A DNA stretch of 64,000 bases from positions 2,556 through 66,555 of the IMG/VR virus record IMGVR_UViG_3300018495_000012. One strand, given 5' to 3'. The position numbers were made by a program, and so were the translations under genes. The notes under the pieces were generated by a model that ran no database searches, was not told where the DNA came from, and worked only from the letters and a program-made list of their open reading frames with translations. This DNA is from a virus (taxonomy: Duplodnaviria > Caudoviricetes). Numbering within the stretch: the stretch's first letter is position 1; every line of letters starts with the position of its first letter. This document shows positions 29,221-59,681 of the stretch, one piece after another.

Positions 29221-29245
29221 CGCGATAAATACATACTCCTTTATG
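29221..29245 (+). promoter_or_regulatory. Phage promoter-like motif copy 1
   Basis: CGCG ataaat ACA tactcct TTATG. Confidence 0.75.
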
Positions 29246-29281
29246 AGGAAACTTGTAAATTATTTTTAAGGAGATTTAATT

Positions 29282-29437
29282 ATGCTTAGAGAAATTAGAG
29301 AAGTTAAGAACGATGAAACGAGAAAAAGAGAAGAGGAAAGAGTTAGAGATAATCTGAGAAGAATAAGCTCTGGAACGACTACTACCTACGAAGAGGCGGT
29401 AGCGTTTGTACATGGTTTATTTACGGAGGAGCATTAA
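29282..29437 (+). CDS. Cassette ORF, 51 aa
   Basis: RBS AAGGAG, MLREIREVK...FTEEH; hairpin GAGGAG/CTCCTC plus U-tract overlaps the 3' end. Confidence 0.65.
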   Translation: MLREIREVKNDETRKREEERVRDNLRRISSGTTTTYEEAVAFVHGLFTEEH

Positions 29438-29459
29438 CAACTCCTCTTCTTTTTCCTTT

Positions 29460-29484
29460 CGCGATCCTTACAAGGGCTATTATG
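29460..29484 (+). promoter_or_regulatory. Motif copy 2
   Basis: CGCG atcctt ACA agggcta TTATG. Confidence 0.75.
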
Positions 29485-29506
29485 AAAACGAAAGGAGACG
29501 ATTATC

Positions 29507-29707
29507 ATGTTAGCGAAAGTTAAAGTATTAAAATTGAAACTTCAAAGTGAATACTACAAAAATTTGAGTATGTATCATTCTAAGAAATCAGAAGAATTTC
29601 TAGAGAAAGGTATGTATGAAGAATCTGAGTATCACCTCAGTTTATCAACAGCATATTTGCTTAAGCGAATTGATACGTCTATGGAGTATACTAAAGCGGT
29701 CCTTTAA
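29507..29707 (+). CDS. Cassette ORF, 66 aa
   Basis: RBS AAAGGAG; terminator AAAGCGGTCCT..AGGGCTGTTTT at the 3' end. Confidence 0.7.
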   Translation: MLAKVKVLKLKLQSEYYKNLSMYHSKKSEEFLEKGMYEESEYHLSLSTAYLLKRIDTSMEYTKAVL

Positions 29708-29722
29708 CAAGGGCTGTTTTTT

Positions 29723-29772
29723 TTTGTACATTAAGCTAGTCTACTTTTAAGCAGAACCCTTTAATGTACAAA
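29723..29772. other. attP: attP site of the large serine integrase
   Basis: Exactly 50 bp bounded by a perfect 12-bp inverted repeat TTTGTACATTAA/TTAATGTACAAA, partial inner symmetry, central TT at 29747-29748, just 3' of the integrase. Confidence 0.8.
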
Positions 29773-29810
29773 CACAATGAAACCCCGCCAATACTGGCAG
29801 GGCCCGGGGC

Positions 29811-31301
29811 TTAAGCGAATTTCCAATGAATATGGATTACTTCGCCATCTATTGATATTTTCTCTATTAATTCTCGGATAAGGAATTTAACCTCGTCCAT
29901 ATCGCCTTCGTCAATAACGTCACATAAACTCAACGCAATCTCTACAGCGTCGTCTTTTGACATCTTTTCTTGCGTATTTTCTAAGTTTCTAATTTCATTA
30001 GCAATACCTTCTTTCTCAGCAGCTAACGGTTTAATCTTGTCCTGTACAGCTTCGAAATCTATACCGCCGATTGAATACAAATCCATCAATTTACTAACTT
30101 GTGATTCTATATTTTTAATACGTTTCGCAAGTACTTTTATTTTTGCAGAATTGTCGTCCTCGAACGTTTCTATTTCGAACTCGTCTGGATGCAATGCTAG
30201 TTTTCTGATTTCACCTAAAACTTTCTCTTCTAATTCAGCAGATTTCCAGTTCTTATTCGTACAACGTTGGTCTCTCGGTATATCTTTCCATTTACCGCTA
30301 TTAGCTGTACGTTTGTAACAGGTATAGTAACCCCACTCTTTAGCTCCAGATTTAGCTAATCTATGAAAATACTTATTGTCACAATGACCACAATTAACCA
30401 TTCCTGCGATAATCGAATTTATTCTAGGCTCTCTAGCTTCGACCTCTCGATCACGTTCCTCTAATATTTCTTGGGCTTTCTCGAAGGTCTCATCGTCTAT
30501 AATCGCCGTATGGATTCCTTCATACCATTCATCTTTATAAGACACCATACCGATATAATGTTTATTTTCTAGCATATCTCTTAAATGATGCTTACCTTCC
30601 CAAGTGACACCGTTTTTACTCGTATAGCCCTTTTTGTGCAATATATTAGCTATTTGTCGTTGAGGTAATCGCAGGTTAAATAGACGGAACATTTCTTTAA
30701 CTTGCATTGCCTCATATTCGTTAATTTCTAGTTCACCATTAACCATGTCGTATCCATACGGCGTACAAGGGCTGCCGCACCAGCGACCGCTTTTAGCTCT
30801 ACCAACTTTACCAACTTCCATACGTTCTTTAATTTGTTCTCTTTCAAGTTGAGCGAAGACGCTTAGAATCCCCACCATCGCTCTCCCGAAGGGCGTACTT
30901 GTATCTAAATTCTCGGTCATACTAATGAAGTCTACGCCATTTGGTAAGAATACGTCCTCAATAAGTGTAAGAGTGTCTTTTTGTGAACGTGATAAACGGT
31001 CTAGCTTATACACTAATACAGCATCAAATCGACCACCCTCGGCATCTTTGATTAGCTCCTGTAAACCTGGACGATTTGTATCCGCACCAGAGTAACCAGC
31101 ATCTGTGTATATTTTATGAACTTCCCAACCATGCGCTTCACAATATAGCTTCATACGGTCGACCTGCTCATTAATCGAATAACCGTCTCTAGCTTGTTCT
31201 AATGTTGACACCCTTGGATACAACGCTAGTCGTTTCTTAGCTGCGCTTCGTTTTTCCGCGAGTTCTCTTCTATTCATTTCTCTTCGTTGTCTAGTAGTCA
31301 T
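29811..31301 (-). CDS. int: Large serine recombinase (integrase)
   Basis: YPRVST catalytic motif, YTDAGYSGA..NRPGL, VYKLDRLSRS, Zn ribbon CGHC..YYTC..C, coiled coil. Confidence 0.95.
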   Translation of the reverse strand: MTTRQRREMNRRELAEKRSAAKKRLALYPRVSTLEQARDGYSINEQVDRMKLYCEAHGWEVHKIYTDAGYSGADTNRPGLQELIKDAEGGRFDAVLVYKLDRLSRSQKDTLTLIEDVFLPNGVDFISMTENLDTSTPFGRAMVGILSVFAQLEREQIKERMEVGKVGRAKSGRWCGSPCTPYGYDMVNGELEINEYEAMQVKEMFRLFNLRLPQRQIANILHKKGYTSKNGVTWEGKHHLRDMLENKHYIGMVSYKDEWYEGIHTAIIDDETFEKAQEILEERDREVEAREPRINSIIAGMVNCGHCDNKYFHRLAKSGAKEWGYYTCYKRTANSGKWKDIPRDQRCTNKNWKSAELEEKVLGEIRKLALHPDEFEIETFEDDNSAKIKVLAKRIKNIESQVSKLMDLYSIGGIDFEAVQDKIKPLAAEKEGIANEIRNLENTQEKMSKDDAVEIALSLCDVIDEGDMDEVKFLIRELIEKISIDGEVIHIHWKFA

Positions 31302-31303
31302 TT

Positions 31304-31696
31304 CTACCTATCCCCTTTGTCTATGATGTCCTTTGCCAGTTGTAGGGTATTCATTACCATTTGCTTTTCAGTTTCAGAGACAATACGTTTACCGCATACC
31401 AGACGAGGCTCCTCTAATACGAATACTATCAACTGATCAATAGCTTCGCATATATCGTGAGTCTTACCGTCCGTACGCTCCATATTCTCACTTTTACCGA
31501 TAAGCCATAACGGGTTTACATTCAAAATGGCAGCTATCGTCTCTACTACTGGCAGCTTTATATTTCTTATATCTCCGTTTTCATATCGGTGTATAGTGGC
31601 TTTGCTCAATCCCGTATAAGTAGCTATATCCACTACCGATATATTTAAGGCTTTGCGTCGTTGCTGTATTCGCTTGCCTATTTCCTCGTTTTTCAT
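31304..31696 (-). CDS. XRE-family repressor (CI-like)
   Basis: HTH ISVVDIATYTGLSKATIHRYENG; divergent from Cro-like gene; co-oriented with integrase. Confidence 0.88.
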   Translation of the reverse strand: MKNEEIGKRIQQRRKALNISVVDIATYTGLSKATIHRYENGDIRNIKLPVVETIAAILNVNPLWLIGKSENMERTDGKTHDICEAIDQLIVFVLEEPRLVCGKRIVSETEKQMVMNTLQLAKDIIDKGDR

Positions 31697-31729
31697 TCTT
31701 TCACCTCCATATTTATTATAAGCTACTTT

Positions 31730-31863
31730 TTCGCATTATGCGAATTATTTATAAACGTCACGCGACTTTCATTTTCTATTCTAAGTTTTCTCACATATTG
31801 CGATTATTATACTAATTGTCGCATAACGCAACGATATTTGACACGAGGTGACGCATAATGATA
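31730..31863. promoter_or_regulatory. Putative operators of the lysis/lysogeny switch, consensus TCGCATWATGCGA
   Basis: TTCGCATTATGCGAA 31730-31744 (perfect palindrome about the centre), TCACATATTGCGA 31791, TCGCATAACGCAA 31819, ACGCATAATG 31851. Confidence 0.65.
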
Positions 31864-32082
31864 AACACTAAGGAAATTAAGAAACTACTTATAGACAAAG
31901 ATTTGGGAATAAAAGACATTGCTCTATGTTTGGGTAAATCATATTCCAGCGCATTATTAAAGATAAACGGTGAGCTTCCTATCACACTTGGCGAAGCCGA
32001 CCGAATTCAAACGTTATTAGGAATCAGCGATTGTGATTTCGGTTTTTACTTCATGAGTCATAGTCGGGAGGTGCGTGAATGA
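31858..32082 (+). CDS. Cro-like HTH protein
   Basis: 74 aa, IKDIALCLGKSYSSALLKING; RBS GAGGTG; divergent from repressor. Confidence 0.8.
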   Translation: MINTKEIKKLLIDKDLGIKDIALCLGKSYSSALLKINGELPITLGEADRIQTLLGISDCDFGFYFMSHSREVRE

Positions 32083-32202
32083 TTATACACCATATGAGCG
32101 ACGGTACGACACGTAAAAGTATAGAAGGTGTGCGTATACCTACCAATTTTGACAAAGTATACGCTTTAGCATATAAGAAACGAATTAAAGGAGAGCGTCA
32201 AA

Positions 32203-32622
32203 ATGGCAACAAAAATAAGAGCAGCAATATCTCGAAGAAATAAATACTGGATCGACAAGCATCGTCATTACGAGCTGAAGCATTTCTGTTTACAATACCC
32301 TATATGGAAGCGTACGTACGCGGCTATAGATGAACTTGGCTCATCGTTAACTGGATTAGGCAATATCGGCGGTAGCAATCTTCCAAGTGATCCTACGGTT
32401 AAGTGCGTAATGCGTAAGGCGTACTATCTCGAACGTATTAGTTTGATAGAGCAAGCTGCTAGAGAAGCGGACGAAGATTTATATTTATACATACTTAAAG
32501 CTGTGACCGAGGATTTGTCTTATACATATTTGAAAGCTAGATTAGACATACCATGCAGTAGAGACACTTATTACGACCGCTACAGACGATTCTTCTGGCT
32601 ACTAAGTGAGTCGCGAAAATGA
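32203..32622 (+). CDS. Putative phage transcriptional regulator (ArpU/RinA-like)
   Basis: C-terminal HTH-like IPCSRDTYYDRYRRFF; first gene after Cro. Confidence 0.45.
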   Translation: MATKIRAAISRRNKYWIDKHRHYELKHFCLQYPIWKRTYAAIDELGSSLTGLGNIGGSNLPSDPTVKCVMRKAYYLERISLIEQAAREADEDLYLYILKAVTEDLSYTYLKARLDIPCSRDTYYDRYRRFFWLLSESRK

Positions 32623-32636
32623 CACGTTCCTTTATG
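32612..32636 (+). promoter_or_regulatory. Motif copy 3
   Basis: CGCG aaaatg ACA cgttcct TTATG, immediately followed by AAAGGA. Confidence 0.75.
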
Positions 32637-32651
32637 AAAGGATGTGATCGT

Positions 32652-32828
32652 ATGTATATCGATATAACAAGCTTTATTATCGGAGGTATAATATGGGAAA
32701 TACTAAAACCTTACATATGTTGTAGATTGATTCCGGAGATTAAACGATCGATGGGTAAATTAAACAAAGATGGAGGGGCTAAAGAGGACTCAAAGAAACC
32801 CGAGAGATATAAAGGTGGCGTTATTTGA
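32652..32828 (+). CDS. Cassette ORF, 58 aa, hydrophobic N-terminus
   Basis: Start moved to the ATG after AAAGGATGTG; MYIDITSFIIGGIIWEIL. Confidence 0.65.
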   Translation: MYIDITSFIIGGIIWEILKPYICCRLIPEIKRSMGKLNKDGGAKEDSKKPERYKGGVI

Positions 32829-32851
32829 TTTAAATGGGGTCTACAAAAATA

Positions 32852-32893
32852 AAGACTAAGGGTCTGTCAATCGACAGGCTCTTTTCTTTTTTT
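32852..32893 (+). terminator. Terminator, near-identical copy at 33492-33531
   Basis: AAGACTA(A)GGGTCTGTCAATCGACAGGCTCTTTTCTTTTTT. Confidence 0.8.
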
Positions 32894-32934
32894 AACCTAG
32901 AGTCCATATTTCTATTCTAGATTAGTCTTGCATT

Positions 32935-33024: not shown

Positions 33025-33049
33025 CGCGAAAGTGACAGTTCCTATTATA
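33025..33049 (+). promoter_or_regulatory. Motif copy 4
   Basis: CGCG aaagtg ACA gttccta TTATA. Confidence 0.75.
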
Positions 33050-33092
33050 GAAACGTACTAACGTTAATTTATTTGAAAGGGAGGACTTTAAA

Positions 33093-33479
33093 ATGGGTCT
33101 TAAAACTGAAATTCGTGAGGAAGTTCAAAACGAACTTAAGGAGTTACGTAAGATGCAGCTGGGTTCAGATGAATACAGAAGCACTGTCGATGGCGTAACA
33201 AAGTTAGCGGATAGAGTAATCGAGATGGATAAACTCGACAATGAGCGTCAGGTTCAAGCGGAGCTTAATGAAAAAGAGCAAGAGCTTAAACAAGCGCAAA
33301 TGAAAGAGGATAAGAAAGATCGAATTATTAAAAACTGTTTAACTGGTGTTAGTGTCGTCGGCGGTATACTGGTGACTATTTGGGGTACGATTGTATCTAT
33401 TAACTTCGAAAGAGAAGGAACATTCACGACTTCAGCAGGAAGAAAACATGTAAATAAGTTACTGTCATTCTTTAAGTAA
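33093..33479 (+). CDS. Cassette ORF, 128 aa, coiled coil plus C-terminal TM
   Basis: RBS AAAGGGAGG; VSVVGGILVTIWGTIV hydrophobic segment. Confidence 0.75.
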   Translation: MGLKTEIREEVQNELKELRKMQLGSDEYRSTVDGVTKLADRVIEMDKLDNERQVQAELNEKEQELKQAQMKEDKKDRIIKNCLTGVSVVGGILVTIWGTIVSINFEREGTFTTSAGRKHVNKLLSFFK

Positions 33480-33531
33480 CGTATACGAATCAAGACTAGG
33501 GTCTGTCAATCGACAGGCTCTTTTCTTTTTT

Positions 33532-33556
33532 CGCGTAAAATACACGCTATTGTATG
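33532..33556 (+). promoter_or_regulatory. Motif copy 5 (GTAT variant)
   Basis: CGCG taaaat ACA cgctatt GTATG. Confidence 0.65.
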
Positions 33557-33796: not shown

Positions 33797-33835
33797 TGTA
33801 AATTCGAAACAGAAGGGCTTCGGCTCTTCTTTTTT

Positions 33836-33860
33836 CGCGACATATACAGCTCATATTATA
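33836..33860 (+). promoter_or_regulatory. Motif copy 6
   Basis: CGCG acatat ACA gctcata TTATA. Confidence 0.75.
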
Positions 33861-34086: not shown

Positions 34087-34111
34087 CGCGAAATTTACAC
34101 GTATTATTATG
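34087..34111 (+). promoter_or_regulatory. Motif copy 7
   Basis: CGCG aaattt ACA cgtatta TTATG. Confidence 0.75.
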
Positions 34112-34216
34112 AAAGAATAGAGTTAGCGGAACTAACGCGAAGCTTGAAAGTAACCGAGGCTAAGCCGAAAGGCAAAGACCGGAGAGGGAAATATCGGACA
34201 CTCTATTTTTATTTTC
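34111..34216 (+). ncRNA. Candidate structured small RNA / leader
   Basis: Closing stem AATAGAG/CTCTATT plus U-tract enclosing four hairpins (GTTAG/CTAAC, AGCTT/AGGCT, GCC-GAAA-GGC, CCG/CGG). Confidence 0.55.
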
Positions 34217-34230
34217 TCCAGAGGTGACAT

Positions 34231-34590
34231 ATGAGATACCATTACGAAAAACCAACTACATATTCGTGTACGTACGGGAGCGTATTCTATTGCGATCATC
34301 CCGTGTATGACGTATGCACATTATTCAAAATAAGAAATAAAGGTTTAGCAGTAATACAGCAGCGGTACGATCCAGATACTAAAAGTACTAGTTGGAGCGA
34401 GATTGATCCATGGCTTACGGACGATTTATACTTACATCCTAAATTTAAAGAGTTCTTTGACGATCGAGCAGGACCGAGTGAGGACGGATTATATCCAACA
34501 GTTACAATTAGGCAACTTATGTGGGGATTAAAGATGAAACCACTACCTAGAAGTCGCTGGGAGACGTGTTTCGACCGTAAAAGCATCTAA
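34231..34590 (+). CDS. Hypothetical protein, 119 aa
   Basis: RBS GAGGTG; ORF track. Confidence 0.7.
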   Translation: MRYHYEKPTTYSCTYGSVFYCDHPVYDVCTLFKIRNKGLAVIQQRYDPDTKSTSWSEIDPWLTDDLYLHPKFKEFFDDRAGPSEDGLYPTVTIRQLMWGLKMKPLPRSRWETCFDRKSI

Positions 34591-34593
34591 ATT

Positions 34594-34618
34594 CGCGAGA
34601 ATTACAAGGGGTATTATG
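34594..34618 (+). promoter_or_regulatory. Motif copy 8
   Basis: CGCG agaatt ACA aggggta TTATG. Confidence 0.75.
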
Positions 34619-34815: not shown

Positions 34816-34852
34816 TAGGGAATCCCGCAAGGGGTTCTTTTTTTTTATACAT

Positions 34853-34877
34853 CGCGAAAAACGCATAGTGTGTTATG
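34853..34877 (+). promoter_or_regulatory. Motif copy 9
   Basis: CGCG aaaaac GCA tagtgtg TTATG. Confidence 0.7.
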
Positions 34878-35104: not shown

Positions 35105-35129
35105 CGCGCAAAACACAGCCTCTATTATG
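35105..35129 (+). promoter_or_regulatory. Motif copy 10
   Basis: CGCG caaaac ACA gcctcta TTATG. Confidence 0.75.
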
Positions 35130-35301: not shown

Positions 35302-35326
35302 CGCGAAAATAACACCTCTTTTTATG
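35302..35326 (+). promoter_or_regulatory. Motif copy 11
   Basis: CGCG aaaata ACA cctcttt TTATG. Confidence 0.75.
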
Positions 35327-35533: not shown

Positions 35534-35558
35534 CGCGAAATTTACAAGGGGTATTATG
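35534..35558 (+). promoter_or_regulatory. Motif copy 12
   Basis: CGCG aaattt ACA aggggta TTATG. Confidence 0.75.
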
Positions 35559-35629
35559 AGAAACAGAAGAGCTCGTTTATACGAGTAAGGGAACGTTTAC
35601 GTACCCGCAAACTGTTTCTTTTACTTTTT
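35558..35629 (+). ncRNA. Candidate three-way-junction small RNA / attenuator leader
   Basis: GAGAAACAG/CTGTTTCTT closing stem, hairpins CTCGT-TTAT-ACGAG and GGGAACG-TTTA-CGTACCC, U-tract. Confidence 0.5.
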
Positions 35630-35658: not shown

Positions 35659-36420
35659 ATGAACAAACTATTACGTCAATCGAAGTTATTTATGAAACGC
35701 AATGCTTCAACAATTCTTACTGGAGCTGGAGCTGTAGGTGTAGTCATGACTTCGGTTATGGCTGTAAAAGCAACACCCAAAGCTTTAAGATTGTTAGAAA
35801 ATGCTAAACAAGAAAAAGGAGAGGATCTAACTACATTAGAGGTTATCAAAACGGCAGCGCCTGTTTATATTCCATCAGTACTTGTGGGTGCGGCTACGAT
35901 CACGTGCATCTTTGGAGCGAACGTATTAAATAAAAAACAGCAAGCGGCTATGATGAGCGCTTACGCATTACTCGATCAATCGTATAAAGATTACAAGAAA
36001 AAAGTAGAAGAGTTATATGGCGAAGGATCAACCAAGCAAATTGAGCAAGAGATCGTCAAGGATAAATATAACGAAAGTGACCTATCGATTGATGATAGCG
36101 ACGGTAAAGAGTTATTCTACGACGCGTTCTCAGAAAGATATTTCAGAGCTACGCTTTCGGACGTGTTAGAAGCAGAGTACGAAGTTAATCACATCCTAGC
36201 GTGTGAGTACGGTCTATATTTAAACGGTTTCTACGAGCTGTTGGGTATTGAGGAAGTAGACTACGGCAATTATATCGGATGGTCTTCTGCTGAATTATAC
36301 GAAACATATTGGAACTCTTGGATCGAGTTTGAACATCAAAAAGTAACGATGGATGACGGACTCGAATGTACAATCATCAATATTCTTACAGAACCGACAT
36401 TTGATTTCGAAAATTATTAA
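35659..36420 (+). CDS. Paralogue family member 1 (DUF6353-like)
   Basis: ILTGAGAVG..AVKATPKA, YKKKVEELYGE, LNGFYELLG..IGW shared with 36746 and 38947 ORFs. Confidence 0.65.
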   Translation: MNKLLRQSKLFMKRNASTILTGAGAVGVVMTSVMAVKATPKALRLLENAKQEKGEDLTTLEVIKTAAPVYIPSVLVGAATITCIFGANVLNKKQQAAMMSAYALLDQSYKDYKKKVEELYGEGSTKQIEQEIVKDKYNESDLSIDDSDGKELFYDAFSERYFRATLSDVLEAEYEVNHILACEYGLYLNGFYELLGIEEVDYGNYIGWSSAELYETYWNSWIEFEHQKVTMDDGLECTIINILTEPTFDFENY

Positions 36421-36467: not shown

Positions 36468-36492
36468 CGCGAAGTAATCAGCGGCTATTATG
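36468..36492 (+). promoter_or_regulatory. Motif copy 13
   Basis: CGCG aagtaa TCA gcggcta TTATG. Confidence 0.7.
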
Positions 36493-36683: not shown

Positions 36684-36745
36684 GGAGGACCCGATAATGG
36701 GGTCTTCTTTTACTTTTAATAATTTATTGAAAGGAGAGATTGACG

Positions 36746-37519
36746 ATGGGTAAACCAAACTTACAACAACTCGTCAAAAGTGCGAAAGTAACGCTTGCGA
36801 AGCATAGTCCAGAAATTCTAACTGGCATCGGCATCACAGGCTTACTTACGACAACTGTGTTAGCGGTAAAAGCCACGCCGAAAGCACTTAAATTACTTGA
36901 GGAGGTAAAGAAAAATGAGCACAAAGAGACCTTAACAGCTCTCGAGACTGTTAAGACCACTTGGAAATGTTACATTCCGGCGGCAGCTATCGGAGCAACA
37001 TCTGTAGCGTGTCTCATCGGAGCGAGCTCGGTCAGTGCAAGACGTAACGCTGCGTTAGCGACTGCGTATAAACTGTCCGAAACAGCCTTCCACGAGTATA
37101 AAAACAAAGTGGTAGAAACTATTGGCGAGAAAAAAGAGCGCCATATCCATGATGAGATCGACAAAGACCACATGGAGAAGAATCCGGTTAGTAAAAATTC
37201 AGTAATCGTTACCGGTATCGGTGATACGTTATGCTACGACCGTCTGTTTAATCAATACTTCTATTCTGATATTGAGAAAATACGAAAAGCGGTCAATGAA
37301 TTAAACCGTCAGATGTTGGTTCATGATTATGTTTCACTTGATGACTTTTATGACGAATTAAACATCCCGCATGTACAATTGGGAGACCAAATGGGATGGC
37401 GCGTGGACAAAGGCTTTATAGAAGTTGACTTCGGTTCACAATTAACTGACGACGGTCGACCGTGTGTCGTTATGCGATATTCTCTGGCACCGGACTACGG
37501 ATTCTCGTCATACACTTAA
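36746..37519 (+). CDS. Paralogue family member 2 (DUF6353-like)
   Basis: HSPEILTGIGITG..AVKATPKA, YKNKVVETIGE, LDDFYDELN..MGW. Confidence 0.65.
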   Translation: MGKPNLQQLVKSAKVTLAKHSPEILTGIGITGLLTTTVLAVKATPKALKLLEEVKKNEHKETLTALETVKTTWKCYIPAAAIGATSVACLIGASSVSARRNAALATAYKLSETAFHEYKNKVVETIGEKKERHIHDEIDKDHMEKNPVSKNSVIVTGIGDTLCYDRLFNQYFYSDIEKIRKAVNELNRQMLVHDYVSLDDFYDELNIPHVQLGDQMGWRVDKGFIEVDFGSQLTDDGRPCVVMRYSLAPDYGFSSYT

Positions 37520-37520: not shown

Positions 37521-37545
37521 CGCGAAAAATACACGTAATATTATG
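37521..37545 (+). promoter_or_regulatory. Motif copy 14
   Basis: CGCG aaaaat ACA cgtaata TTATG. Confidence 0.75.
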
Positions 37546-38656: not shown

Positions 38657-38926
38657 ATGTACGAATCACAAGATAAAATGGTATCGCATCCGTCTCATTA
38701 CCAGTCAAGTAAAGGTATCGAAGTTATCAACGTAATCGAAGCTTTTACAGAAAACTTGAAGGGTATTGAGGCGACCGATACCGGAAATATCATCAAATAC
38801 GCTTGCCGTTGGAAGGATAAGAACGGCATTCAGGATCTCGAAAAGATAATGTGGTATACACAACATCTTATCGATCATTTAAAAGAAAAAGAAATTAAAA
38901 ACGAAATGGATATTTGTTGTCCATAA
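38657..38926 (+). CDS. DUF3310 / T7 gp1.7-like nucleotide kinase family protein
   Basis: VSHPSHY..IEVI..IE..GNIIKYACRWKDKNGIQDLEK..WY. Confidence 0.8.
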   Translation: MYESQDKMVSHPSHYQSSKGIEVINVIEAFTENLKGIEATDTGNIIKYACRWKDKNGIQDLEKIMWYTQHLIDHLKEKEIKNEMDICCP

Positions 38927-38946
38927 GAAAAGGAGACGAATTAGTC

Positions 38947-39906
38947 ATGGCTAAAGGAAGAATTATGACAAATGTATCAAGAACATTCCATAAAGGTTTG
39001 TTCCAACTTAAGAAACACAGCCCTGAAATCATGGTAGTAGGCGGTACTATCGGTATGGTTGTCAGTGCTGTAATGGCATGTAAGGCTACAACAAAAGTCG
39101 ATGCTATTCTCGACAAAACAAAAGAGCAGGTAGACGGTATTCATAGAGTACTTGAAACACCCGAACTTCAGGAAAAGTATAAAAAAGAATACGGCGAAGA
39201 ATACACTGTAGAAGCAAGTAAGAAAGATCTTGCCGTAGTGTATGCTAAAACCGGTGTAGAATTCGCAAAAGTATATGGTCCGGCTGTACTTCTTGGCGCA
39301 GCTTCTGTAACAAGTATCCTTTGCGGACACAACATTCTTAACAAGCGTCATGCAGCTCTTACAGCAGCTTATGCGGTTGTGGATAACGGATTCAAAGAAT
39401 ACCGTGGAAGAGTTGTAGAGCGTTTCGGTGAAGAGCTTGATAGAGAGCTTAAATACAACATCAAATCAAAAGAAATCGAAGAAGAGGTTACGGACGAAGA
39501 AGGAAACGTAACTAAGGTTAAGAAAACTGTAGAAGTTCCTGAAATCTCACTGGATAACGAGTATGATCGTTTCTTCATGGAAGGTTGCAATGGCTGGGAC
39601 AAAGGTGATCCTATTTACAACAAGGCATTCGTTCTTCGACAGCAAGATTGGGCAAATGAGTTGTTGAGAACTCGCGGTCATTTGTTCCTTAACGAAGTGT
39701 ACGATATGTTCGGTCTATGCCGTACTCGTGCTGGTAGCACTGTAGGTTGGGTATACGATCCTGAGAATCCGGACTTGAACAACTGCGTTGACTTCGGTCT
39801 TGGAAGAGACATTGATTTCTCAAAAGGTTTATTCATCAACGGTGAAGAACGCAGCGTATTACTTCGTTTCAATGTTGACGGAAACGTGTGGGATTTGATG
39901 AAATGA
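38947..39906 (+). CDS. Paralogue family member 3 (DUF6353-like)
   Basis: HSPEIMVVGG..ACKATTK, YRGRVVERFGE, LNEVYDMFG..VGW; start moved to the ATG after AAAGGAG. Confidence 0.65.
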   Translation: MAKGRIMTNVSRTFHKGLFQLKKHSPEIMVVGGTIGMVVSAVMACKATTKVDAILDKTKEQVDGIHRVLETPELQEKYKKEYGEEYTVEASKKDLAVVYAKTGVEFAKVYGPAVLLGAASVTSILCGHNILNKRHAALTAAYAVVDNGFKEYRGRVVERFGEELDRELKYNIKSKEIEEEVTDEEGNVTKVKKTVEVPEISLDNEYDRFFMEGCNGWDKGDPIYNKAFVLRQQDWANELLRTRGHLFLNEVYDMFGLCRTRAGSTVGWVYDPENPDLNNCVDFGLGRDIDFSKGLFINGEERSVLLRFNVDGNVWDLMK

Positions 39907-46538: not shown

Positions 46539-46563
46539 CGCGATAAATACATGGTCCTTTATA
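46539..46563 (+). promoter_or_regulatory. Motif copy 15
   Basis: CGCG ataaat ACA tggtcct TTATA. Confidence 0.75.
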
Positions 46564-48820: not shown

Positions 48821-50043
48821 TGGCGATTCAGCTACGAGACTATCAGCTAGACGCTATTGAACGAATGTCTAACGGCTGCATACTCAACGGCGGAGTTGGA
48901 TCTGGTAAATCTCGTACGGCGCTTGCATACTATTACAAAGAGCAAGGCGGAGATTTGCATTCCGACCGCTATAAAGAGATGGATAAACCGAAAGACCTAT
49001 ACATAATCACTACGGCGCGAAAACGAGATACTTTGGAATGGGAAGGCGAAATGGCACCGTTCCTAATCACTACAAAACCTGACTTAGCAATCTACCATAA
49101 TCACAAGGTTGTAGTGGACTCGTGGAATAACATAAAAAAGTATCAAGATGTGTACGGGGCATTCTTTATATTTGACGAGCAGAGAGTTGTCGGTTCTGGA
49201 GCGTGGGTAAAGGCATTCTTAAAGATTGCAAGAAAAAACAAATGGATTCTTTTATCTGCGACTCCAGGAGACACTTGGACTGATTATATTCCGGTGTTTG
49301 TTGCTAATGGGTTCTATAGAAATAAAACAGAATTCATTAACAAGCATGTTATATATCGATGGGTAAATAAGAGTTATCCTAAAATCGATAGGTACATAAA
49401 CACCGGACGACTAATCAAGCTGCGAAATCAAATCTTGGTCGACATGGATTTCCATCGAAGTACGGTGTCACATCATAACGATATCTTTGTTCAGTATGAT
49501 ATTTTGAAATACAAGGAACTGACTAAGCATCGTTGGAACCCGTATACGAATGAACCGGTAATCAATGCTGCTGAGTTATGTTACACCTGGAGACGAATCG
49601 TAAACGAAGACCAATCAAGGCAAGTAGCATTGCTTGAGCTGTTCGAGAAACATCCTAAGATGATAGTCTTCTATAACTTCGATTATGAGCTTGATATTCT
49701 AAGAGGCATATTCGAAGCTTCTGGTACGACCTACGCAGAATGGAACGGACATAAGCATCAACCTATTCCGGAAGGAAAACAATGGGTTTACTTAGTTCAG
49801 TATACTGCCGGCTGTGAAGGGTGGAACTGTATAACAACTGATACGATAGTATTCTACTCTCAGAACTATAGCTATAAAGTTATGGAGCAGGCTAGAGGAC
49901 GAATCGATCGAATGAATACGCCATTTATCAATTTATATTACTATCATCTAAAGAGCAGAGCGCCTATCGACTTAGCTATTAGTAGAGCCGTAGCTTCAAA
50001 GAAGAGCTTTAATGAGTCTAGGTACGCTAGTCGCTTCGCGTAA
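48820..50043 (+). CDS. Superfamily 2 (SNF2-like) helicase
   Basis: GVGSGKS, IFDEQR, LLSATP, QARGRIDR. Confidence 0.85.
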   Translation: MAIQLRDYQLDAIERMSNGCILNGGVGSGKSRTALAYYYKEQGGDLHSDRYKEMDKPKDLYIITTARKRDTLEWEGEMAPFLITTKPDLAIYHNHKVVVDSWNNIKKYQDVYGAFFIFDEQRVVGSGAWVKAFLKIARKNKWILLSATPGDTWTDYIPVFVANGFYRNKTEFINKHVIYRWVNKSYPKIDRYINTGRLIKLRNQILVDMDFHRSTVSHHNDIFVQYDILKYKELTKHRWNPYTNEPVINAAELCYTWRRIVNEDQSRQVALLELFEKHPKMIVFYNFDYELDILRGIFEASGTTYAEWNGHKHQPIPEGKQWVYLVQYTAGCEGWNCITTDTIVFYSQNYSYKVMEQARGRIDRMNTPFINLYYYHLKSRAPIDLAISRAVASKKSFNESRYASRFA

Positions 50044-50061
50044 ATTGCATCCGATATTATG
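50037..50061 (+). promoter_or_regulatory. Motif copy 16
   Basis: CGCG taaatt GCA tccgata TTATG, followed by AAAGGA. Confidence 0.7.
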
Positions 50062-50077: not shown

Positions 50078-50260
50078 ATGAAAAAACTATCAAAAGAACA
50101 GGTTGAACATCTTGTTGAAATCTGTCCGGTAATATCTCAAATAGGAGTAGCTAAAATGATATTAGCGGCAAATGGTAAACGAGTTGTAGATGAAAAATAC
50201 GATAAAGATAGTGGAATGTATACTTTCACGATTATTGAAAGGACTAATAGTCTAGGCTGA
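50078..50260 (+). CDS. Cassette ORF, 60 aa
   Basis: Start moved to the ATG after AAAGGATGTG; terminator 50246-50281. Confidence 0.65.
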   Translation: MKKLSKEQVEHLVEICPVISQIGVAKMILAANGKRVVDEKYDKDSGMYTFTIIERTNSLG

Positions 50261-50283
50261 AAAAGCTTAGGCTATTTTCTTTC

Positions 50284-50308
50284 CGCGTAAAAAACATAGT
50301 CCTTTATG
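50284..50308 (+). promoter_or_regulatory. Motif copy 17
   Basis: CGCG taaaaa ACA tagtcct TTATG, followed by AAAGGA. Confidence 0.75.
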
Positions 50309-53414: not shown

Positions 53415-53439
53415 CGCGCAAAAAACATGCTCCTTTATG
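53415..53439 (+). promoter_or_regulatory. Motif copy 18
   Basis: CGCG caaaaa ACA tgctcct TTATG. Confidence 0.75.
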
Positions 53440-54273: not shown

Positions 54274-55470
54274 ATGGCTGATGTAAAAATTTTCACTGAT
54301 AACATCGAACATGAAGCCGTCAATCAAATAAACACGCTTATTGAACAACCGGCTTTTTCGGACTGTAAAGTGCGCATCATGCCTGACGTTCATGCGGGCG
54401 CTGGATGTGTAATAGGGTTTACGGCTGATCTGGGTGACAAAGTTATTCCTAATATAGTTGGAGTCGATATTGGTTGCGGAATGTATACAATTAAACTTGG
54501 TAAATGTGATATTAACTTTGACAAGCTCGATTCTACAATTAGAGCTAAGATACCTTCAGGACGAAATGTTTACGGAAACTTGTGCCCGGACTATGTAAAA
54601 CATAGAAGTCAAGAGCTAATAGACAAGCTTAATTGTAAATATGAACTTCGTAACCGAGATTGGTTAATACATTCGTTAGGAACTCTCGGAGGAGGCAATC
54701 ATTTCATCGAAATAGACGAGGATAATAGCGGTGATAAATATCTCATCGTCCATAGCGGTAGTAGAAATCTCGGAAAACAGGTTGCTGACATATACCAAAG
54801 AAAAGCTATCACACGCTTATATTCCAAGAAAGATGAAAGAGCAGCTATAATTGAAAAACTCAAAAAAGAAGGTCGAGAAACAGAAATTCAAAACGAATTA
54901 TCCAAATTGTCGTTTAAGCAGCGAACCGCACCTCCTAAAGAACTCTGTTATCTTGAAGGGTCGGATAGAGATGATTATCTGTTCGACATGAGAATTTGTC
55001 AGAGATTTGCTAAGTGCAACCGAGAAATAATTGCTAGGCGCATTTGTATAGGCATGGGCTGGGATTGGGCTGATAACCGCGGATTTCATACAGTTCATAA
55101 CTATGTTGATAGCGACAATATGGTTCGTAAAGGTGCAATTTCTGCTAGACAAGGAGAGCTTCTACTTATACCTATAAATATGCGCGATGGTTGTATATTA
55201 GGTGTTGGTAAAGGTAATGAAGATTGGAATCATTCGGCCCCTCATGGCGCTGGACGTATTATGAGTCGTATTAAAGCCAAAGAAATGCTGTCTATAGATG
55301 ATTTTAAAGAGTCTATGAATGGTATTTTTACGACATCTGTGAATGAATTCACGATAGATGAAAGTCCAATGGCATACAAACCGATGGATGAGATTATATC
55401 GAATATCAAAGACACGGTAAACATCGTTACAATAATTAAACCTATTTATAATTTTAAAGCATGTGATTGA
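54274..55470 (+). CDS. rtcB: RtcB-family RNA ligase
   Basis: MPDVHAG, GVDIGCG, GTLGGGNHFIE, HSGSR, HNY, RKGA, SAPHGAGR, DESPMAYK. Confidence 0.95.
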   Translation: MADVKIFTDNIEHEAVNQINTLIEQPAFSDCKVRIMPDVHAGAGCVIGFTADLGDKVIPNIVGVDIGCGMYTIKLGKCDINFDKLDSTIRAKIPSGRNVYGNLCPDYVKHRSQELIDKLNCKYELRNRDWLIHSLGTLGGGNHFIEIDEDNSGDKYLIVHSGSRNLGKQVADIYQRKAITRLYSKKDERAAIIEKLKKEGRETEIQNELSKLSFKQRTAPPKELCYLEGSDRDDYLFDMRICQRFAKCNREIIARRICIGMGWDWADNRGFHTVHNYVDSDNMVRKGAISARQGELLLIPINMRDGCILGVGKGNEDWNHSAPHGAGRIMSRIKAKEMLSIDDFKESMNGIFTTSVNEFTIDESPMAYKPMDEIISNIKDTVNIVTIIKPIYNFKACD

Positions 55471-56079: not shown

Positions 56080-56205
56080 TGAGCGATAAAGATAATCCAA
56101 TAACTCGTGAAGAGCTGGAACTGATTATAAAACAAATGATTAATTTAGAAATAAGCATGTCGAATGACGGACATCCGTTTTATCGATAGAAAAGGAGAAA
56201 GATTG

Positions 56206-56520
56206 ATGACTAACTTATATTACATATGCAACATCGGGTGCGATGCCGAGACACATGGTCTTGCGCGTATATCTGATGAGGATTTCCCTAAGTTTAAAGA
56301 AATCATAGAGAACCTTAATAAGAACTCTACATATGGCTGTATGCCAAAGATCGAGGTGTATAAGATATTCGAAGGGTTAATTATGGAATACAGCGGTAAT
56401 ATTTCTGATTCTACGAACTTACATCTTGACGGGCGAGTGTATATTCTCGCGACGGGTTCTATATACAACTATAAAAACGGAAAAAACGAATTGATTGAAG
56501 GAGTTGAACGAGTAATATGA
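56206..56520 (+). CDS. Hypothetical protein
   Basis: Start moved to the ATG after AAAGGAG. Confidence 0.6.
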   Translation: MTNLYYICNIGCDAETHGLARISDEDFPKFKEIIENLNKNSTYGCMPKIEVYKIFEGLIMEYSGNISDSTNLHLDGRVYILATGSIYNYKNGKNELIEGVERVI

Positions 56521-57290
56521 TCAAACTTGAAAATACGATAACACCTTCGCCTGGACAGTGGATGATAACTGTATTAGGCGCTCGTAACGCGATGAATAGC
56601 TGGGATCGTAGCGACAGCGAGATTAAGTATGAAAACGTACGCGATTCCACTGGATATTTAGACATGGGTCCGAACGATCATGATTTACTTATGAGACTTA
56701 GAAATGCAGGTACGGATCACAGAAAATATTTGAGAATGCTGCCTGTACACGTAAACATAACAGCTCCGCTTTATTGGTGGAAGGAATTCGATACTTACAA
56801 AATCGGGACTACTGCGAACTCTTGCTCAACTATGCACAAGATTCATGAGAAGGAGTTTACTCTTGATGACTTTAGCCATGAGCATTTGCTGTACGATCAC
56901 GATGATGAGGTTTGTCCGGTTAGAGCGGGTTTATATTTTGAGGTTCGACCACCCATTAACGAAGATTTTGTATGGAACAAATTCATTTCGCCAAAAAGTG
57001 GACTCGAAATAATTATAGAACTGCTTAATACGAATCGAGAACTATTCCTTGAAACTAAAGACAAGCGTTACTGGTGGCAGATGATCCAGCTTCTTCCCAG
57101 CTCGTATAACCAGAAACGTACGGTTATGTTGAATTACGAGGTTTTGGCGAATATCTATAAGTCTCGTAAGAATCATAAACTTCAGGAATGGTTGGAGCTG
57201 TGTAAGTGGATCGAGGGGCTGCCTTATAGTGAGTTGATTACGGGTAATATCGGTAATGGCGAAGCCAGCGATGGTGGGGTGAAGGAATGA
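56517..57290 (+). CDS. ThyX-like (flavin-dependent thymidylate synthase fold) protein, divergent
   Basis: ARNAMNSW, HRKYLR, ITAPLYWWKEFDTY..NSCST, QLLPSSY; canonical RHR motif absent. Confidence 0.45.
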   Translation: MIKLENTITPSPGQWMITVLGARNAMNSWDRSDSEIKYENVRDSTGYLDMGPNDHDLLMRLRNAGTDHRKYLRMLPVHVNITAPLYWWKEFDTYKIGTTANSCSTMHKIHEKEFTLDDFSHEHLLYDHDDEVCPVRAGLYFEVRPPINEDFVWNKFISPKSGLEIIIELLNTNRELFLETKDKRYWWQMIQLLPSSYNQKRTVMLNYEVLANIYKSRKNHKLQEWLELCKWIEGLPYSELITGNIGNGEASDGGVKE

Positions 57291-57601
57291 AAGCATCTTA
57301 TGTTTTACCATCCGGTAACTATAACATTCTATTAGAAAAAGATGATCTTTTAACGTTGTTAGAAAAAGGACATATTTGTGTAACCCCGTTGAAACATGTG
57401 CCTTGTACGTCGAGTAGAGCTCTTTTCGACCCTGATAAGTCTGAAATGAATATACTCGATAAACATGACGTGCCTAACATGTTAATGTTTTATCTGGACG
57501 AACCAGTAGCAGACATTGACGCTGGGGAACATTATGTTCAGTTTCTAACTCTCAATATAGAAGACGACGTGTTGAAAGAAATCAAAAAGGAAGTGAATTG
57601 A
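57287..57601 (+). CDS. Hypothetical protein, 104 aa
   Basis: ORF track; overlapping start. Confidence 0.6.
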   Translation: MKASYVLPSGNYNILLEKDDLLTLLEKGHICVTPLKHVPCTSSRALFDPDKSEMNILDKHDVPNMLMFYLDEPVADIDAGEHYVQFLTLNIEDDVLKEIKKEVN

Positions 57602-57750
57602 TGAAAGTAGCAATATTGATATTTTGTGGTCTGGTTGCTATGTGTATCGGGTACGGTCCATTTGTGATGTCTGGTAAATTGAGCGAACAGGAGAGGAAGA
57701 GAAAACAAAGAGGAGAAAAAAATCAACACTCTAGATAATGGAGGAACTTT

Positions 57751-58410
57751 ATGAGTAATAATAACAAACAAAAGAGTTGCTGGTGGTGCCTAACTATGAT
57801 AATCGTATACGCAATTATTATATTTGTATTTACGATATTCATACACGTCAAAGTGCTCGCTATTGAGTCCGCTACATATGAACCGTCGGTAACACCGTGT
57901 GAGAGTCCGATTGTGGATACTCCTATGATTAATATTGAAGAAGAGATAGTCATCGCTGAGACAGAACCTGTCGTGCCTGCTGTGAGGTATTTTGACGTTC
58001 CGTTGAGTGAAGACTTGCAGGATCATATATTTGCAGTATGTGAGAGTTATGGTGTGGATCCTGTAGTAGTCATGGCGGTGATTAAGAAAGAATCAATGTT
58101 TAAAGCTGGTGAGATTGGCGATAGCGGAAACTCATTCGGCTTGATGCAGATTCAACCTAGATGGCATGGGGCACCCTATTCCACTAGAATGGAGAGACTT
58201 GGAGTTACTGACTTGTTAGATCCGTACCAGAACGTCATTGTTGGCATTGATATTTTGGCTGAGTTATTCAGCAAAGGCGGATCTTTGGAGTGGGTTTTGA
58301 TGTCGTACAATGGAGGTTATGCGCATGCAAACAATCATATTGCTAATGGCACTGTTAGTGATTATGTTGCTATTGTTACGAATTATATGAACACAATTGA
58401 AAGGAAATGA
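57751..58410 (+). CDS. Membrane-anchored lytic transglycosylase (SLT domain)
   Basis: N-terminal TM; AVIKKES catalytic Glu, GLMQI, SYNGG. Confidence 0.85.
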   Translation: MSNNNKQKSCWWCLTMIIVYAIIIFVFTIFIHVKVLAIESATYEPSVTPCESPIVDTPMINIEEEIVIAETEPVVPAVRYFDVPLSEDLQDHIFAVCESYGVDPVVVMAVIKKESMFKAGEIGDSGNSFGLMQIQPRWHGAPYSTRMERLGVTDLLDPYQNVIVGIDILAELFSKGGSLEWVLMSYNGGYAHANNHIANGTVSDYVAIVTNYMNTIERK

Positions 58411-58622
58411 TATTTATGGATTACAAGATGAGAGAATTAAAAAAGAACGGTGAGGGTTATGACGATCCTACCGCATATGAAGCTATTAAGAAAATAGACC
58501 CTACTGCTAGAAAACGTTATAGATTGATAGGGTGTATTTTGAGAATTTGTGAGCTTGCCGGGTACGAGGTTGTCGGGCGAATAGAGCTTAGAGATGTGAA
58601 GACTGGTAAGGTTTATAAGTGA
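58407..58622 (+). CDS. Hypothetical protein, 71 aa
   Basis: KKNGEGYDDPTAYEAI; ORF track. Confidence 0.65.
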   Translation: MIFMDYKMRELKKNGEGYDDPTAYEAIKKIDPTARKRYRLIGCILRICELAGYEVVGRIELRDVKTGKVYK

Positions 58623-58624
58623 TT

Positions 58625-58980
58625 TTTGTGGTCACTTTTATGTGTCCTGCCCACTTTTATATTTGACCACGAATCGTTGAAAAATTTACTGGTCAAAAAA
58701 AGTGGGTTTTTGCCCGGTTTTGTGAAACAAAAATGGCCAGCAAATTGGTCAAAAACTTAAACAAAAGTTTAAGAAACTTAAACAATTGTTTAAGAAACTT
58801 AAACAAAAGTTTAAGAAATTGAGGTATTTTTAGCTCTCTGGCCAAATGGTCACTTTTTTTTCTTAAAAGTTTTAAAAAATAAAAACTTAAACAATTGTTT
58901 AAGAAACTTAAACAAAAGTTTAAGAATTAAAAATATAAAAGTTTTAGCAAAAAAATCTGGCCATTTGACCAAAGTGTATT
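58625..58980. repeat. AT-rich palindromic repeat array, candidate replication origin
   Basis: Five 18-bp palindromes CTTAAAC-(AAAA/AATT)-GTTTAAG at 58756, 58777, 58798, 58886, 58907 (21-bp period), flanked by inverted AAATGGCCAG/CTGGCCATTT and TTGGTCAAA/TTTGACCAA. Confidence 0.75.
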
Positions 58981-58995
58981 TTTGAGAGGAGAATT

Positions 58996-59418
58996 ATGCA
59001 ATACAATAATAAATTTGATTCAATATTAGAACGAATGTCTAAGATATTTCCGTCGATCCATGCAAAGGTTGTGAGCTGGTATCCAAGCGATAAAAGCGAA
59101 ATCGTTGTGATTCTTGATGACGGTGTTAAGATGGCATACGAAAGTTTTGATGATACGATACGTACTATCAAGTCTGAATACATATCTTCTGAGGTTATGG
59201 ATGAGGTGTCTTACAGAAAAAAGTTTTCGGACGCTCTCCGATATCAGATGAGGATGTCAGGAATAATGCAATACGAACTTTCCGAACAGACCGGAATATC
59301 TGTACAGACACTTAGCAAGTATTTGAGAGGTACGGCTACCCCAAGCGCATACAATATATTCAAGATTGCTAATGCTCTCGGATGTCCTATTTCAAAACTT
59401 ATAAGCTACGATATTTGA
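58996..59418 (+). CDS. Protein with C-terminal XRE HTH
   Basis: MQYELSEQTGISVQTLSKYLRG..PSAYNIFKIANALG. Confidence 0.8.
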   Translation: MQYNNKFDSILERMSKIFPSIHAKVVSWYPSDKSEIVVILDDGVKMAYESFDDTIRTIKSEYISSEVMDEVSYRKKFSDALRYQMRMSGIMQYELSEQTGISVQTLSKYLRGTATPSAYNIFKIANALGCPISKLISYDI

Positions 59419-59429
59419 AAGGAGAATGT

Positions 59430-59591
59430 AATATGGGATGGGTAATTAGTTTAATGCTTTTGATAGGCGGTGCTTTTACCAAGCAGACCTATACAGGTGA
59501 CGCAATACTTATTGCGAGTGCTTTGTTCGCAATTGCTGGTTCTTTAGGCGGAGCTGCAAATATATTAGTAAGTAAGATTAATAAACATTAA
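59430..59591 (+). CDS. Small two-TM protein
   Basis: MGWVISLMLLIGG..ILIASALFAIAG; RBS AAAGGAG; terminator 59603-59640. Confidence 0.6.
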   Translation, partial: NMGWVISLMLLIGGAFTKQTYTGDAILIASALFAIAGSLGGAANILVSKINKH

Positions 59592-59656
59592 TAAGTATTG
59601 TTAGAAGGGTCCGTGTAAATCACATGGGCTCTTCATTTTTATCCGTTTTCGGCAGA

Positions 59657-59681
59657 CGCGAAAAATACATGCCCTTTTATG
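59657..59681 (+). promoter_or_regulatory. Motif copy 19 (heads the nuclease-RNA polymerase operon)
   Basis: CGCG aaaaat ACA tgccctt TTATG. Confidence 0.75.

Follow-up and report, generated by a model that had tools for sequence, protein, structure and literature searches.

A compact three-block motif repeated before the early and middle genes of a Caudoviricetes phage is a candidate promoter of its two-barrel RNA polymerase

The DNA analyzed here (hereafter, the window) covers bases 2556–66555 of the complete 66,555-bp genome of a gut phage of the Caudoviricetes (IMG/VR record IMGVR_UViG_3300018495_000012), and the coordinates of this phage given below are positions within these 64,000 nucleotides (nt). 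The genome ends share a 49-bp repeat, and IMG/VR classifies the genome as having direct terminal repeats. The 29–60 kb region of the window carries many copies of a short element, CGCG-N6-DCA-N7-TTATR (D = A, G, or T; R = A or G), and the last copy heads an operon containing the gene of a 990-amino-acid (aa) protein, a predicted single-chain two-barrel RNA polymerase (Table 1). A preliminary description of the sequence had proposed that this polymerase recognizes the element, and had listed 19 copies of fixed geometry. The pattern had 18 exact matches in the window, all on the + strand, whereas dinucleotide-preserving shuffles averaged 0.08 matches and never exceeded 2; the remaining listed copy, at 33532, was real but differed by a single base, with GTATG in place of TTATG. 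When both strands of the whole 66,555-bp genome were scanned with a weight matrix derived from these 19 sites, exactly the same 19 were recovered (scores of 26.5–38.2), with no further site scoring above 8. Thus all 19 copies were on the + strand, as originally described, and copies were absent from the head and tail genes, for which the earlier statement had been made before any exhaustive scan, from the lysis genes, and from the 2.5 kb of the genome beyond the window. A pattern-free seed-similarity search of the non-coding stretches gave the same motif as the top repeat. Information content was found in CGCG at motif positions 1–4, an A-rich stretch at 5–9, ACA at 11–13, T at 19, TTATR at 21–25, and purines at 26–28. 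The three blocks, CGCG, ACA, and TTATG, were spaced at approximately 10 bp, which is one helical turn and places them on one face of the DNA.

The position of the copies relative to genes was judged by start codons with a preceding ribosome-binding site, and not by the longest frames. All copies were intergenic or overlapped the upstream stop codon by no more than 10 nt, and the distance from the final G of the motif to the next start codon preceded by a ribosome-binding site was 11–120 nt for each copy. When a terminator was defined as a strong hairpin plus a T-run, + strand terminators were enriched only in the 29–60 kb region (15 versus 7.8 expected, and 22 versus 11.8 expected), and the head, tail, and lysis block showed no terminators above background. 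Five terminators ended 6–23 nt upstream of a copy, and several further copies were preceded by a T-run. These results agreed with the earlier observation that the copies usually follow a terminator or a stop codon and stand upstream of a ribosome-binding site, since all of them preceded a ribosome-binding site and a start codon; the placement of AAAGGA directly after TTATG in copies 3, 16, and 17 was also correct. The 29–60 kb region is therefore an array of units, each consisting of a promoter-like site, a small gene, and a terminator, which is broken by the replication genes.

Table 1. Motif copies and genes of the polymerase operon in the window. ORF, open reading frame; HTH, helix-turn-helix.
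Feature	Position	Strand	Context
Copy 1	29221–29245	+	6 nt past the last lysis-region ORF; 37 nt ahead of a 51-aa ORF
Copy 2	29460–29484	+	23 nt ahead of a 66-aa ORF (29507–29707)
Copy 3	32612–32636	+	Overlaps the stop codon of a 139-aa ORF; AAAGGA immediately 3' of the final G; start codon at 32652
Copy 4	33025–33049	+	Final base A; precedes ORF 33093–33479
Copy 5	33532–33556	+	One-mismatch GTATG variant; 11 nt past terminator 33498–33521
Copy 6	33836–33860	+	Final base A; 6 nt past terminator 33811–33830; ribosome-binding site at +3
Copy 7	34087–34111	+	Followed by a 120-nt structured leader, then ORF 34231–34590
Copy 8	34594–34618	+	
Copy 9	34853–34877	+	13 nt past terminator 34817–34840
Copy 10	35105–35129	+	14-nt leader
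Copy 11	35302–35326	+	Short ORF downstream, missed by the placement script
Copy 12	35534–35558	+	63-nt three-way RNA structure downstream; upstream of a DUF6353 gene (35659–36420)
Copy 13	36468–36492	+	
Copy 14	37521–37545	+	
Copy 15	46539–46563	+	Final base A; downstream of the primase-polymerase block
Copy 16	50037–50061	+	Overlaps the helicase stop codon; AAAGGA immediately 3' of the final G
Copy 17	50284–50308	+	8 nt past terminator 50246–50276; AAAGGA immediately 3' of the final G
Copy 18	53415–53439	+	
Copy 19	59657–59681	+	Top score, most conserved in relatives; 23 nt past terminator 59604–59634; heads the nuclease-exonuclease-polymerase operon
Polymerase-operon leader	59681–59736	+	Purine run pairs with pyrimidine run, then U-tract; possible attenuator
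VRR-Nuc-type endonuclease	59760–60068	+	First gene of the polymerase operon
Cas4-type exonuclease	60070–60642	+	Polymerase operon
Predicted single-chain two-barrel RNA polymerase, 990 aa	60647–63619	+	1706 family of YonO-like proteins; DFDGD loop; N- and C-terminal HTH
91-aa protein (phrog_4303)	63623–63898	+	Directly after the polymerase gene also in annotated relatives; kept in all compared lineages; possible accessory factor

Promoters of the sigma-70 type have an invariant A at −11 and T at −7, and transcription starts 6–8 nt downstream of the −10 hexamer. Sigma-70-type hexamer pairs occurred at the level of shuffled sequences in every region of the phage genome (34 versus 31, 52 versus 55, and 47 versus 47). 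The sole −10-like hexamer in the motif was at positions 19–24, with ACA ending 5 nt and CGCG ending 14 nt upstream of it, and the motif contained no −35/−10 pair 16–18 bp apart. At position 20 of the motif, which corresponds to the −11 A, 10 copies had A, 8 had T, and 1 had G, so that the −11 A was absent from 9 of the 19; in the Faecalibacterium phage FP_oengus, described below, the copies mostly read CTTTAT, and the A was missing in nearly all of them. The shuffle-level hexamers, the wrong spacing, and the missing −11 A agreed with the original statement that the geometry is unlike that of sigma-A promoters. In copies 3, 6, 16, and 17, the core of the ribosome-binding site lay within +2 to +8 relative to the last motif base. 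Because a start 6–8 nt past a −10 hexamer at positions 19–24 would delete the ribosome-binding site in these four copies, the transcription start is predicted to be approximately at the final G/A, as had been suggested.

The asymmetric three blocks with 10-bp spacing would also suit a protein binding to a single face of the DNA helix, and the phage encodes Cro/CI-type HTH proteins at 31304–31696 and 58996–59418. The motif could thus be a box for a phage repressor or activator that overlaps ordinary promoters. However, there were no accompanying sigma-70-like promoters above the shuffle level, the conservation extended into the first purines predicted to be transcribed and ended at the upstream edge, the site was retained in virulent relatives, and each copy was co-oriented with a gene at a fixed short distance, all of which made a regulator box very improbable. 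The 19 copies, without exception, were near-identical, co-oriented, and placed before genes, as is characteristic of phage-specific promoters, and it is very probable that they are the promoters of a phage-specific transcription system.

The three-block geometry recurred in eight further lineages that encode an HTH-flanked two-barrel polymerase, where it was co-oriented with genes and occurred only in the non-structural region. It was found as CGCGAAAAATACA-N7-TTTATGGAA in FP_oengus (about 15 copies), CGCG-N6-ACA-N5-TATAATR in the Arthrobacter phage Mudcat (at least 7 copies), CGCA-N6-ACACGTCCTATAATGAGACCCCTA in the Gordonia phage Gill (13 copies), a looser form of the Gill version in the Streptomyces phage Bilo (at least 5 copies), a CGCA type in the Rhodococcus phage ReqiPoco6 (2 copies in 7 kb), a CGCG type in the oral contig89 (1 copy), TTTA-N6-ACATACCCTATAATGA in the Lactococcus phage P092 (11 copies), and CACA-N6-ACA-N5-TATAGTAGAAAG in the Lactococcus phage CHPC971 (13 copies). 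P092 and CHPC971 both grow on Lactococcus lactis, and each had one invariant version: TATAATG with upstream TTTA in P092, versus TATAGTAG with upstream CACA in CHPC971. That two phage genera differ in this way while sharing a Lactococcus host indicated that the specificity is phage-encoded, and the tracking of the motif with phage lineage across two host phyla suggested that the reader is phage-encoded. A phage-encoded specificity factor for the motif is therefore well supported by the sequence comparisons. Among the IMG/VR relatives, those with 53–62% identical polymerases carried the motif, and most had a copy approximately 1 kb upstream of the polymerase gene. This pre-polymerase copy was kept across relatives with 44–60% identical polymerases, from the present phage to FP_oengus, in flanks that had wholly diverged.

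These comparisons also bear on a host holoenzyme acting alone, with either the primary or an alternative host sigma factor. Such a reader would fit the sequence TATTAT, found at positions 19–24 in 10 of the 19 copies, and the TATAAT of relatives. It is nevertheless scarcely credible, because one geometry extends across phages of Actinobacteria and Firmicutes, because the two Lactococcus phage genera have different fixed versions on the same host, and because motif clusters in bacterial genomes were confined to prophages of this lineage. Lone consensus hits looked like chance: those examined lay by ABC-transporter, GNAT, or MerR genes or inside a terminator-like hairpin and were rejected as host promoters, and others, also taken as chance, were in Omnitrophota, Bacteroidota, and an archaeon. 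A 1032-aa ORF behind one lone hit (Merdivicinus) was considered as a divergent polymerase; it had neither a DxDGD motif nor any similarity to the polymerase and was judged to be a spurious frame.

The 990-aa protein matched phrog_4291 (E = 0) and showed 36–59% full-length identity with the proteins of FP_oengus, Mudcat, Gill, Bilo, P092, and the Lactococcus phage 1706, with which the flanking nuclease genes and the genome layout were also shared. The metal-binding loop ADFDGD (residues 534–539) was invariant in the 25 and in the 6 homologues aligned. An AlphaFold model of the protein had a predicted local distance difference test score of 71, with low confidence in the first barrel (residues 245–390). 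In VIA-align, the model aligned best with QDE-1 (Z = 12.6, root-mean-square deviation 5.1, 359 residues) and RDR2 (Z = 12.3), and the top Foldseek matches, with a borderline E of 2e-3, were QDE-1, Pol IV, and the Thermus phage polymerases P74 gp62 and P32 gp64. As modeled, the protein has a two-barrel polymerase fold. In Pfam, an N-terminal HTH_23 domain scored 34.2 bits, above the threshold, and a C-terminal HTH was just under the thresholds for sigma-70 region 4; the homologue alignment contained three HTH-like segments, of which two were N-terminal and the third lay at the extreme C-terminus. A sequence search of solved structures with the polymerase matched only a small HTH protein, and the polymerase region had no megablast match in the phage collection. 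By tblastn, the protein was present in 250 phage records, and the gene was at or near the right genome end in the complete records listed; there was no Bacillus or SPbeta record among the matches in the phage collection. In annotated relatives, the polymerase gene was followed by one small gene and then by late genes or the genome end. A search of the genome for T7-like polymerases gave no match, but the controls were also undetected.

The 1706 family of YonO-like proteins was previously predicted to be a polymerase branch separate from YonO (PMC2919709), and an HTH-flanked "putative RNA polymerase" ("HTH-RdRP-HTH") was described as a signature of an Actinobacteria/Firmicutes phage supercluster (10.1101/842583). 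In both reports the activity was predicted, the HTHs were noted, and no promoter was described. Thus the polymerase family was already known as a prediction, and we did not find the promoter, its cross-phylum conservation, or the possible HTH code in the literature.

To relate the motif to the polymerase, IMG/VR was scanned with the consensus, which gave at least 119 loci, and the records of at least 45 kb (n = 37) were examined. The polymerase was encoded by 34 of these 37 long records with the motif. The three records without it (G002, G010, and G015) each had 10–12 one-stranded copies; G002 is half a genome, and G010 stops between the helicase and terminase genes, which is the expected location of the polymerase. 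Among 50 bacterial genomes tested, 20 encoded the polymerase, including all 5 whose 8-kb locus contained two or more exact copies. A looser four-site cluster was present without the polymerase in a prophage of a Christensenellaceae metagenome-assembled genome (G058; C2:164000–194000, loci L278 and L279), where the polymerase gene, the small genes, and the terminase gene were deleted between the Cas4 exonuclease and portal genes. As these deletions indicate, the G058 element is defective, and its motif copies persist.

There was no sigma region-2 domain in the six frames of the genome, and the positive controls were detected. The non-structural proteins common to all compared lineages were the three DUF6353 paralogues, phrog_4079, the primase-polymerase, the helicase, the two nucleases, the polymerase, and the 91-aa protein, and only the polymerase among them had recognized DNA-binding modules. 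Because the motif and the polymerase co-occurred in 34 of 37 records, the polymerase has HTH modules of its own, there was no sigma region-2 domain, and no other universal protein was a recognized DNA-binding protein, the polymerase is the best candidate for the reader. We consider that the 19 sites are probably promoters read by the 990-aa polymerase and not by the host sigma-A holoenzyme. Of the original proposal, the promoter-like character, the non-sigma-A geometry, the start at about the final G, and the phage-encoded specificity were well supported, and the link to the polymerase was inferred from the points above. A possible trace of recognition was seen in the second N-terminal HTH, whose helix read ES[ST][VI]R wherever the upstream block was of the C-C type and PGSVT in P092; P092 was the only lineage without the C-C upstream block (TTTA) and also the only one with an altered recognition helix in this HTH. 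This weakly suggested co-variation of the HTH helix with the upstream block.

Several observations weighed against the polymerase as the reader. Motif and polymerase came apart in provirus G015 (61.6 kb, CheckV 97% complete), which had 10 exact copies, each before a ribosome-binding site and a start codon, and in which protein, tblastn, and family hidden-Markov-model searches found neither the polymerase gene nor the VRR-Nuc and Cas4 genes. A relative of this kind, carrying the motif but no polymerase, had been named in the preliminary description as evidence contrary to its proposal, and G015 was one such case. G015 retained only the primase half of the primase-polymerase, the polymerase half being gone, and contained approximately 17 kb of unrelated genes (e.g., a DHH phosphoesterase) in the place of the polymerase module, with the early genes, helicase, terminase, and head genes retained (loci L152, L150, and L151); it may be decayed or helper-dependent. 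The third block was a perfect TATAAT in the actinophage and lactococcal lineages, in which the host primary sigma may contribute. The C-terminal HTH fell slightly short of the Pfam thresholds, and the co-variation of helix and upstream block was a single evolutionary event. SPbeta YonO has a single late promoter (PMC5467207), and no similar motif was present in the SPbeta yonN–yonK region or the surrounding 50-kb chunk, so the mapped YonO start cannot calibrate this promoter. Finally, the polymerase gene lies behind a copy of its own putative promoter, which does not readily account for prophage induction in the temperate members.

Some of these observations would fit a host RNA polymerase redirected by another phage protein, of the activator or sigma-appropriation type, with the upstream blocks as the box of that factor, the third block as a weak −10, and the two-barrel polymerase serving only the late genes, as YonO does. 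The 10 well-placed copies retained by G015 without a polymerase, the TATAAT third block of the actinophage and lactococcal lineages, and the restriction of SPbeta YonO to the late operon were in line with this, and a possible factor was a conserved 139-aa protein, the first of the early proteins (32203–32622), encoded just before the first rightward copy. The nearest named Atlas clusters of this protein were DUF722, antiterminator-Q, and DUF1492 (0.92–0.93). It may be an early regulator and a candidate starter for induction, which we regard as a lead only. The 139-aa protein was, however, confined to the temperate clostridial branch, with FP_oengus, G010, G015, and G058, and it was rejected as a universal reader of the motif because the virulent actinophage and lactococcal lineages carry the motif but not this protein. 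The genome had no sigma region-2 domain, and the universally shared proteins other than the polymerase had no recognized DNA-binding domain. Moreover, the −11 A was missing in 9 of the 19 copies and in most FP_oengus copies, ribosome-binding sites at +2 to +8 did not fit a start 6–8 nt past the hexamer, and no distinct late promoter was seen after the polymerase gene. A redirected host enzyme was on these grounds considered unlikely, although it was the main rival, favored chiefly by G015 and by the TATAAT third block of some lineages, and we retained the 990-aa polymerase as the probable reader.

The transcript leaders predicted from a start at the final G were analyzed for structure. The preliminary description had noted a stem opening at this G in copies 7, 12, and 19. 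For copy 12 this was confirmed: the 63-nt three-way RNA structure at 35558–35620 closed at nt 1, ended in a U-run, contained no ORF, and was more stable than expected (z = −4.1), and it could function as a small RNA or as an attenuator. For copy 7, a stem was present only in the centroid structure and from nt 4, and the ORF-free leader (34111–34230), which contained several hairpins including a GCC-GAAA-GGC tetraloop, was no better than shuffles (z = −0.96). For copy 19, the stem was one of two competing pairings. In one, the purine run of the leader pairs with a downstream pyrimidine run that is followed by the U-tract, in the manner of a terminator, and a hairpin plus U-tract was also seen in relatives L003, L009, L011, L016, and L021; in the alternative fold, seen in this phage, the pyrimidine run is freed to pair with the ribosome-binding site. 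Covariation support for the hairpin (2 of 9 pairs, in low-complexity arms) was too weak to count. The leader may be an attenuator that gates expression of the polymerase and the late genes. No Rfam family reached its gathering score across 28000–64000. In P092 (L024), a tRNA-like stretch, GCTCAGAGGTAGAGC ... GGTTCGAGTCC, followed within approximately 10 nt of two motif copies (regions 20078–20190 and 20466–20560); ARAGORN found no tRNA in P092 or CHPC971, and these stretches are thus unconfirmed.

No strong + strand terminator was found between copy 19 and the end of the late block, a stretch that includes the polymerase gene and the genome junction, nor was a separate late-gene promoter detected after the polymerase gene. 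The absence of a strong terminator makes late read-through from copy 19 plausible, and the position of the polymerase gene behind copy 19 implies that pre-made enzyme would be needed. The homologue in phage 1706, orf75, was labeled "structural protein" by its depositors (EU081845), most of its neighbors being labeled "unknown", and ReqiPoco6 repeats the label. The disordered N-terminus of the polymerase (60647–60770, residues 1–40) contained an acidic run followed by L-x-H-Y/I-G, conserved in six lineages, and L-x-H-G was also present in the capsid fusion protein (4415–6271) at the junction of the protease linker and the capsid (approximately residue 290) in this phage, FP_oengus, Bilo, and P092. 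The shared L-x-H-G-type motif could be a cleavage site of the prohead protease by which capsid cargo is labeled. The 1706 database label and this N-terminal motif are both suggestive of packaging in the capsid and injection, and we propose that the polymerase is probably delivered in the virion.

In the scheme that we propose, the promoter would be approximately 25–28 bp long and would start transcription at or next to the final G/A, running into a purine-rich start. The HTH modules would recognize the two upstream blocks and the catalytic core would open the A/T-rich third block, an arrangement that would suit the location of the three blocks on one helical face. Capsid packaging and injection of the enzyme would allow the short early genes to fire at once. 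Copy 19 would then drive synthesis of new polymerase and, in the absence of a terminator, transcription would probably continue past the joined genome ends into the 30-kb late block. That one injected two-barrel enzyme with sigma-like HTH readers runs nearly the whole program of a cross-phylum siphophage lineage, largely independently of the host RNA polymerase, is a possibility that we put forward tentatively. The promoter code, CGCG/ACA/TTATG and its variants, could be matched to the HTH recognition helices.

Other features of the genome were as follows. A serine integrase gene and a Cro/CI-type repressor gene were encoded on the opposite strand at 29811–31696. The three DUF6353 paralogues (35659–36420, 36740–37519, and 38914–39906) were conserved in the compared lineages, although two of the three had no match in P092, and no Atlas hit was left after exclusion of their own family. 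A gene for an RtcB-type RNA ligase (54274–55470, Pfam E = 5e-58) was present among the middle genes. Upstream of the Cro/CI-type HTH gene at 58996–59418, the stretch 58625–58990 contained five to six palindromes, CTTAAAC-N4-GTTTAAG, and repeated TGGCCA/TGGTCA words, and AT-rich palindromes were found at the equivalent place in Bilo (L022, 38817–39202). The repeats at 58625–58990 could be a replication origin or an operator array.

Promoters of the T7/T3/SP6 class are compact, at approximately 23–28 bp, occur in many near-identical copies, and have no −35/−10 pair, and in T7 the sequence TATA before the start is followed by GGGAGA. The motif described here resembles them in being compact, in having one orientation, and in running through the predicted start into purines, with TTAT followed by GARA. 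It differs in that its three blocks are one helical turn apart and its copies serve early and middle genes and not just late ones, and the enzyme of the present phage is not a right-hand polymerase but a predicted two-barrel kin of the cellular RNA polymerases and QDE-1, with HTH modules. DNA-dependent RNA synthesis was shown only for SPbeta YonO, a single-chain enzyme with one late start mapped upstream of yonK, and its promoter sequence and need for a factor were left open (PMC5467207). Like YonO, a member of the same superfamily, the 990-aa protein is one polypeptide with a DxDGD barrel, its gene is just upstream of the late block, and the late unit is free of terminators. As a proposed particle-borne polymerase for phage early promoters, it can be compared with the virion RNA polymerase of N4, gp66 of crAss-like phages, and the P23-45 enzyme (10.1101/2022.12.01.518664), and the crAss-like and P23-45 enzymes are likewise two-barrel. 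Unlike the hairpin promoters of N4, the motif has consensus blocks of the double-stranded type, and virion carriage is suggested here by a database label and an N-terminal motif. The present lineage also differs from these phages in that it has temperate siphophages and genomes of 45–80 kb.

The cellular transcription machine has its simplest relatives in the single-chain two-barrel polymerases. For the present family of these enzymes, the motif provides a sharply defined, multi-copy promoter candidate in phages ranging from those of Clostridia to those of Streptomyces, with natural variants that can be compared with variants of the HTH modules. Promoter recognition by a minimal RNA polymerase thus becomes testable in culturable phages, such as the Lactococcus phages 1706 and P092 and the phages of Gordonia, Arthrobacter, and Streptomyces, and, for phages of gut and soil, the motif offers a simple key to annotating the transcription units of thousands of genomes. 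If the polymerase does read the motif, the two could constitute a compact orthogonal polymerase–promoter pair.

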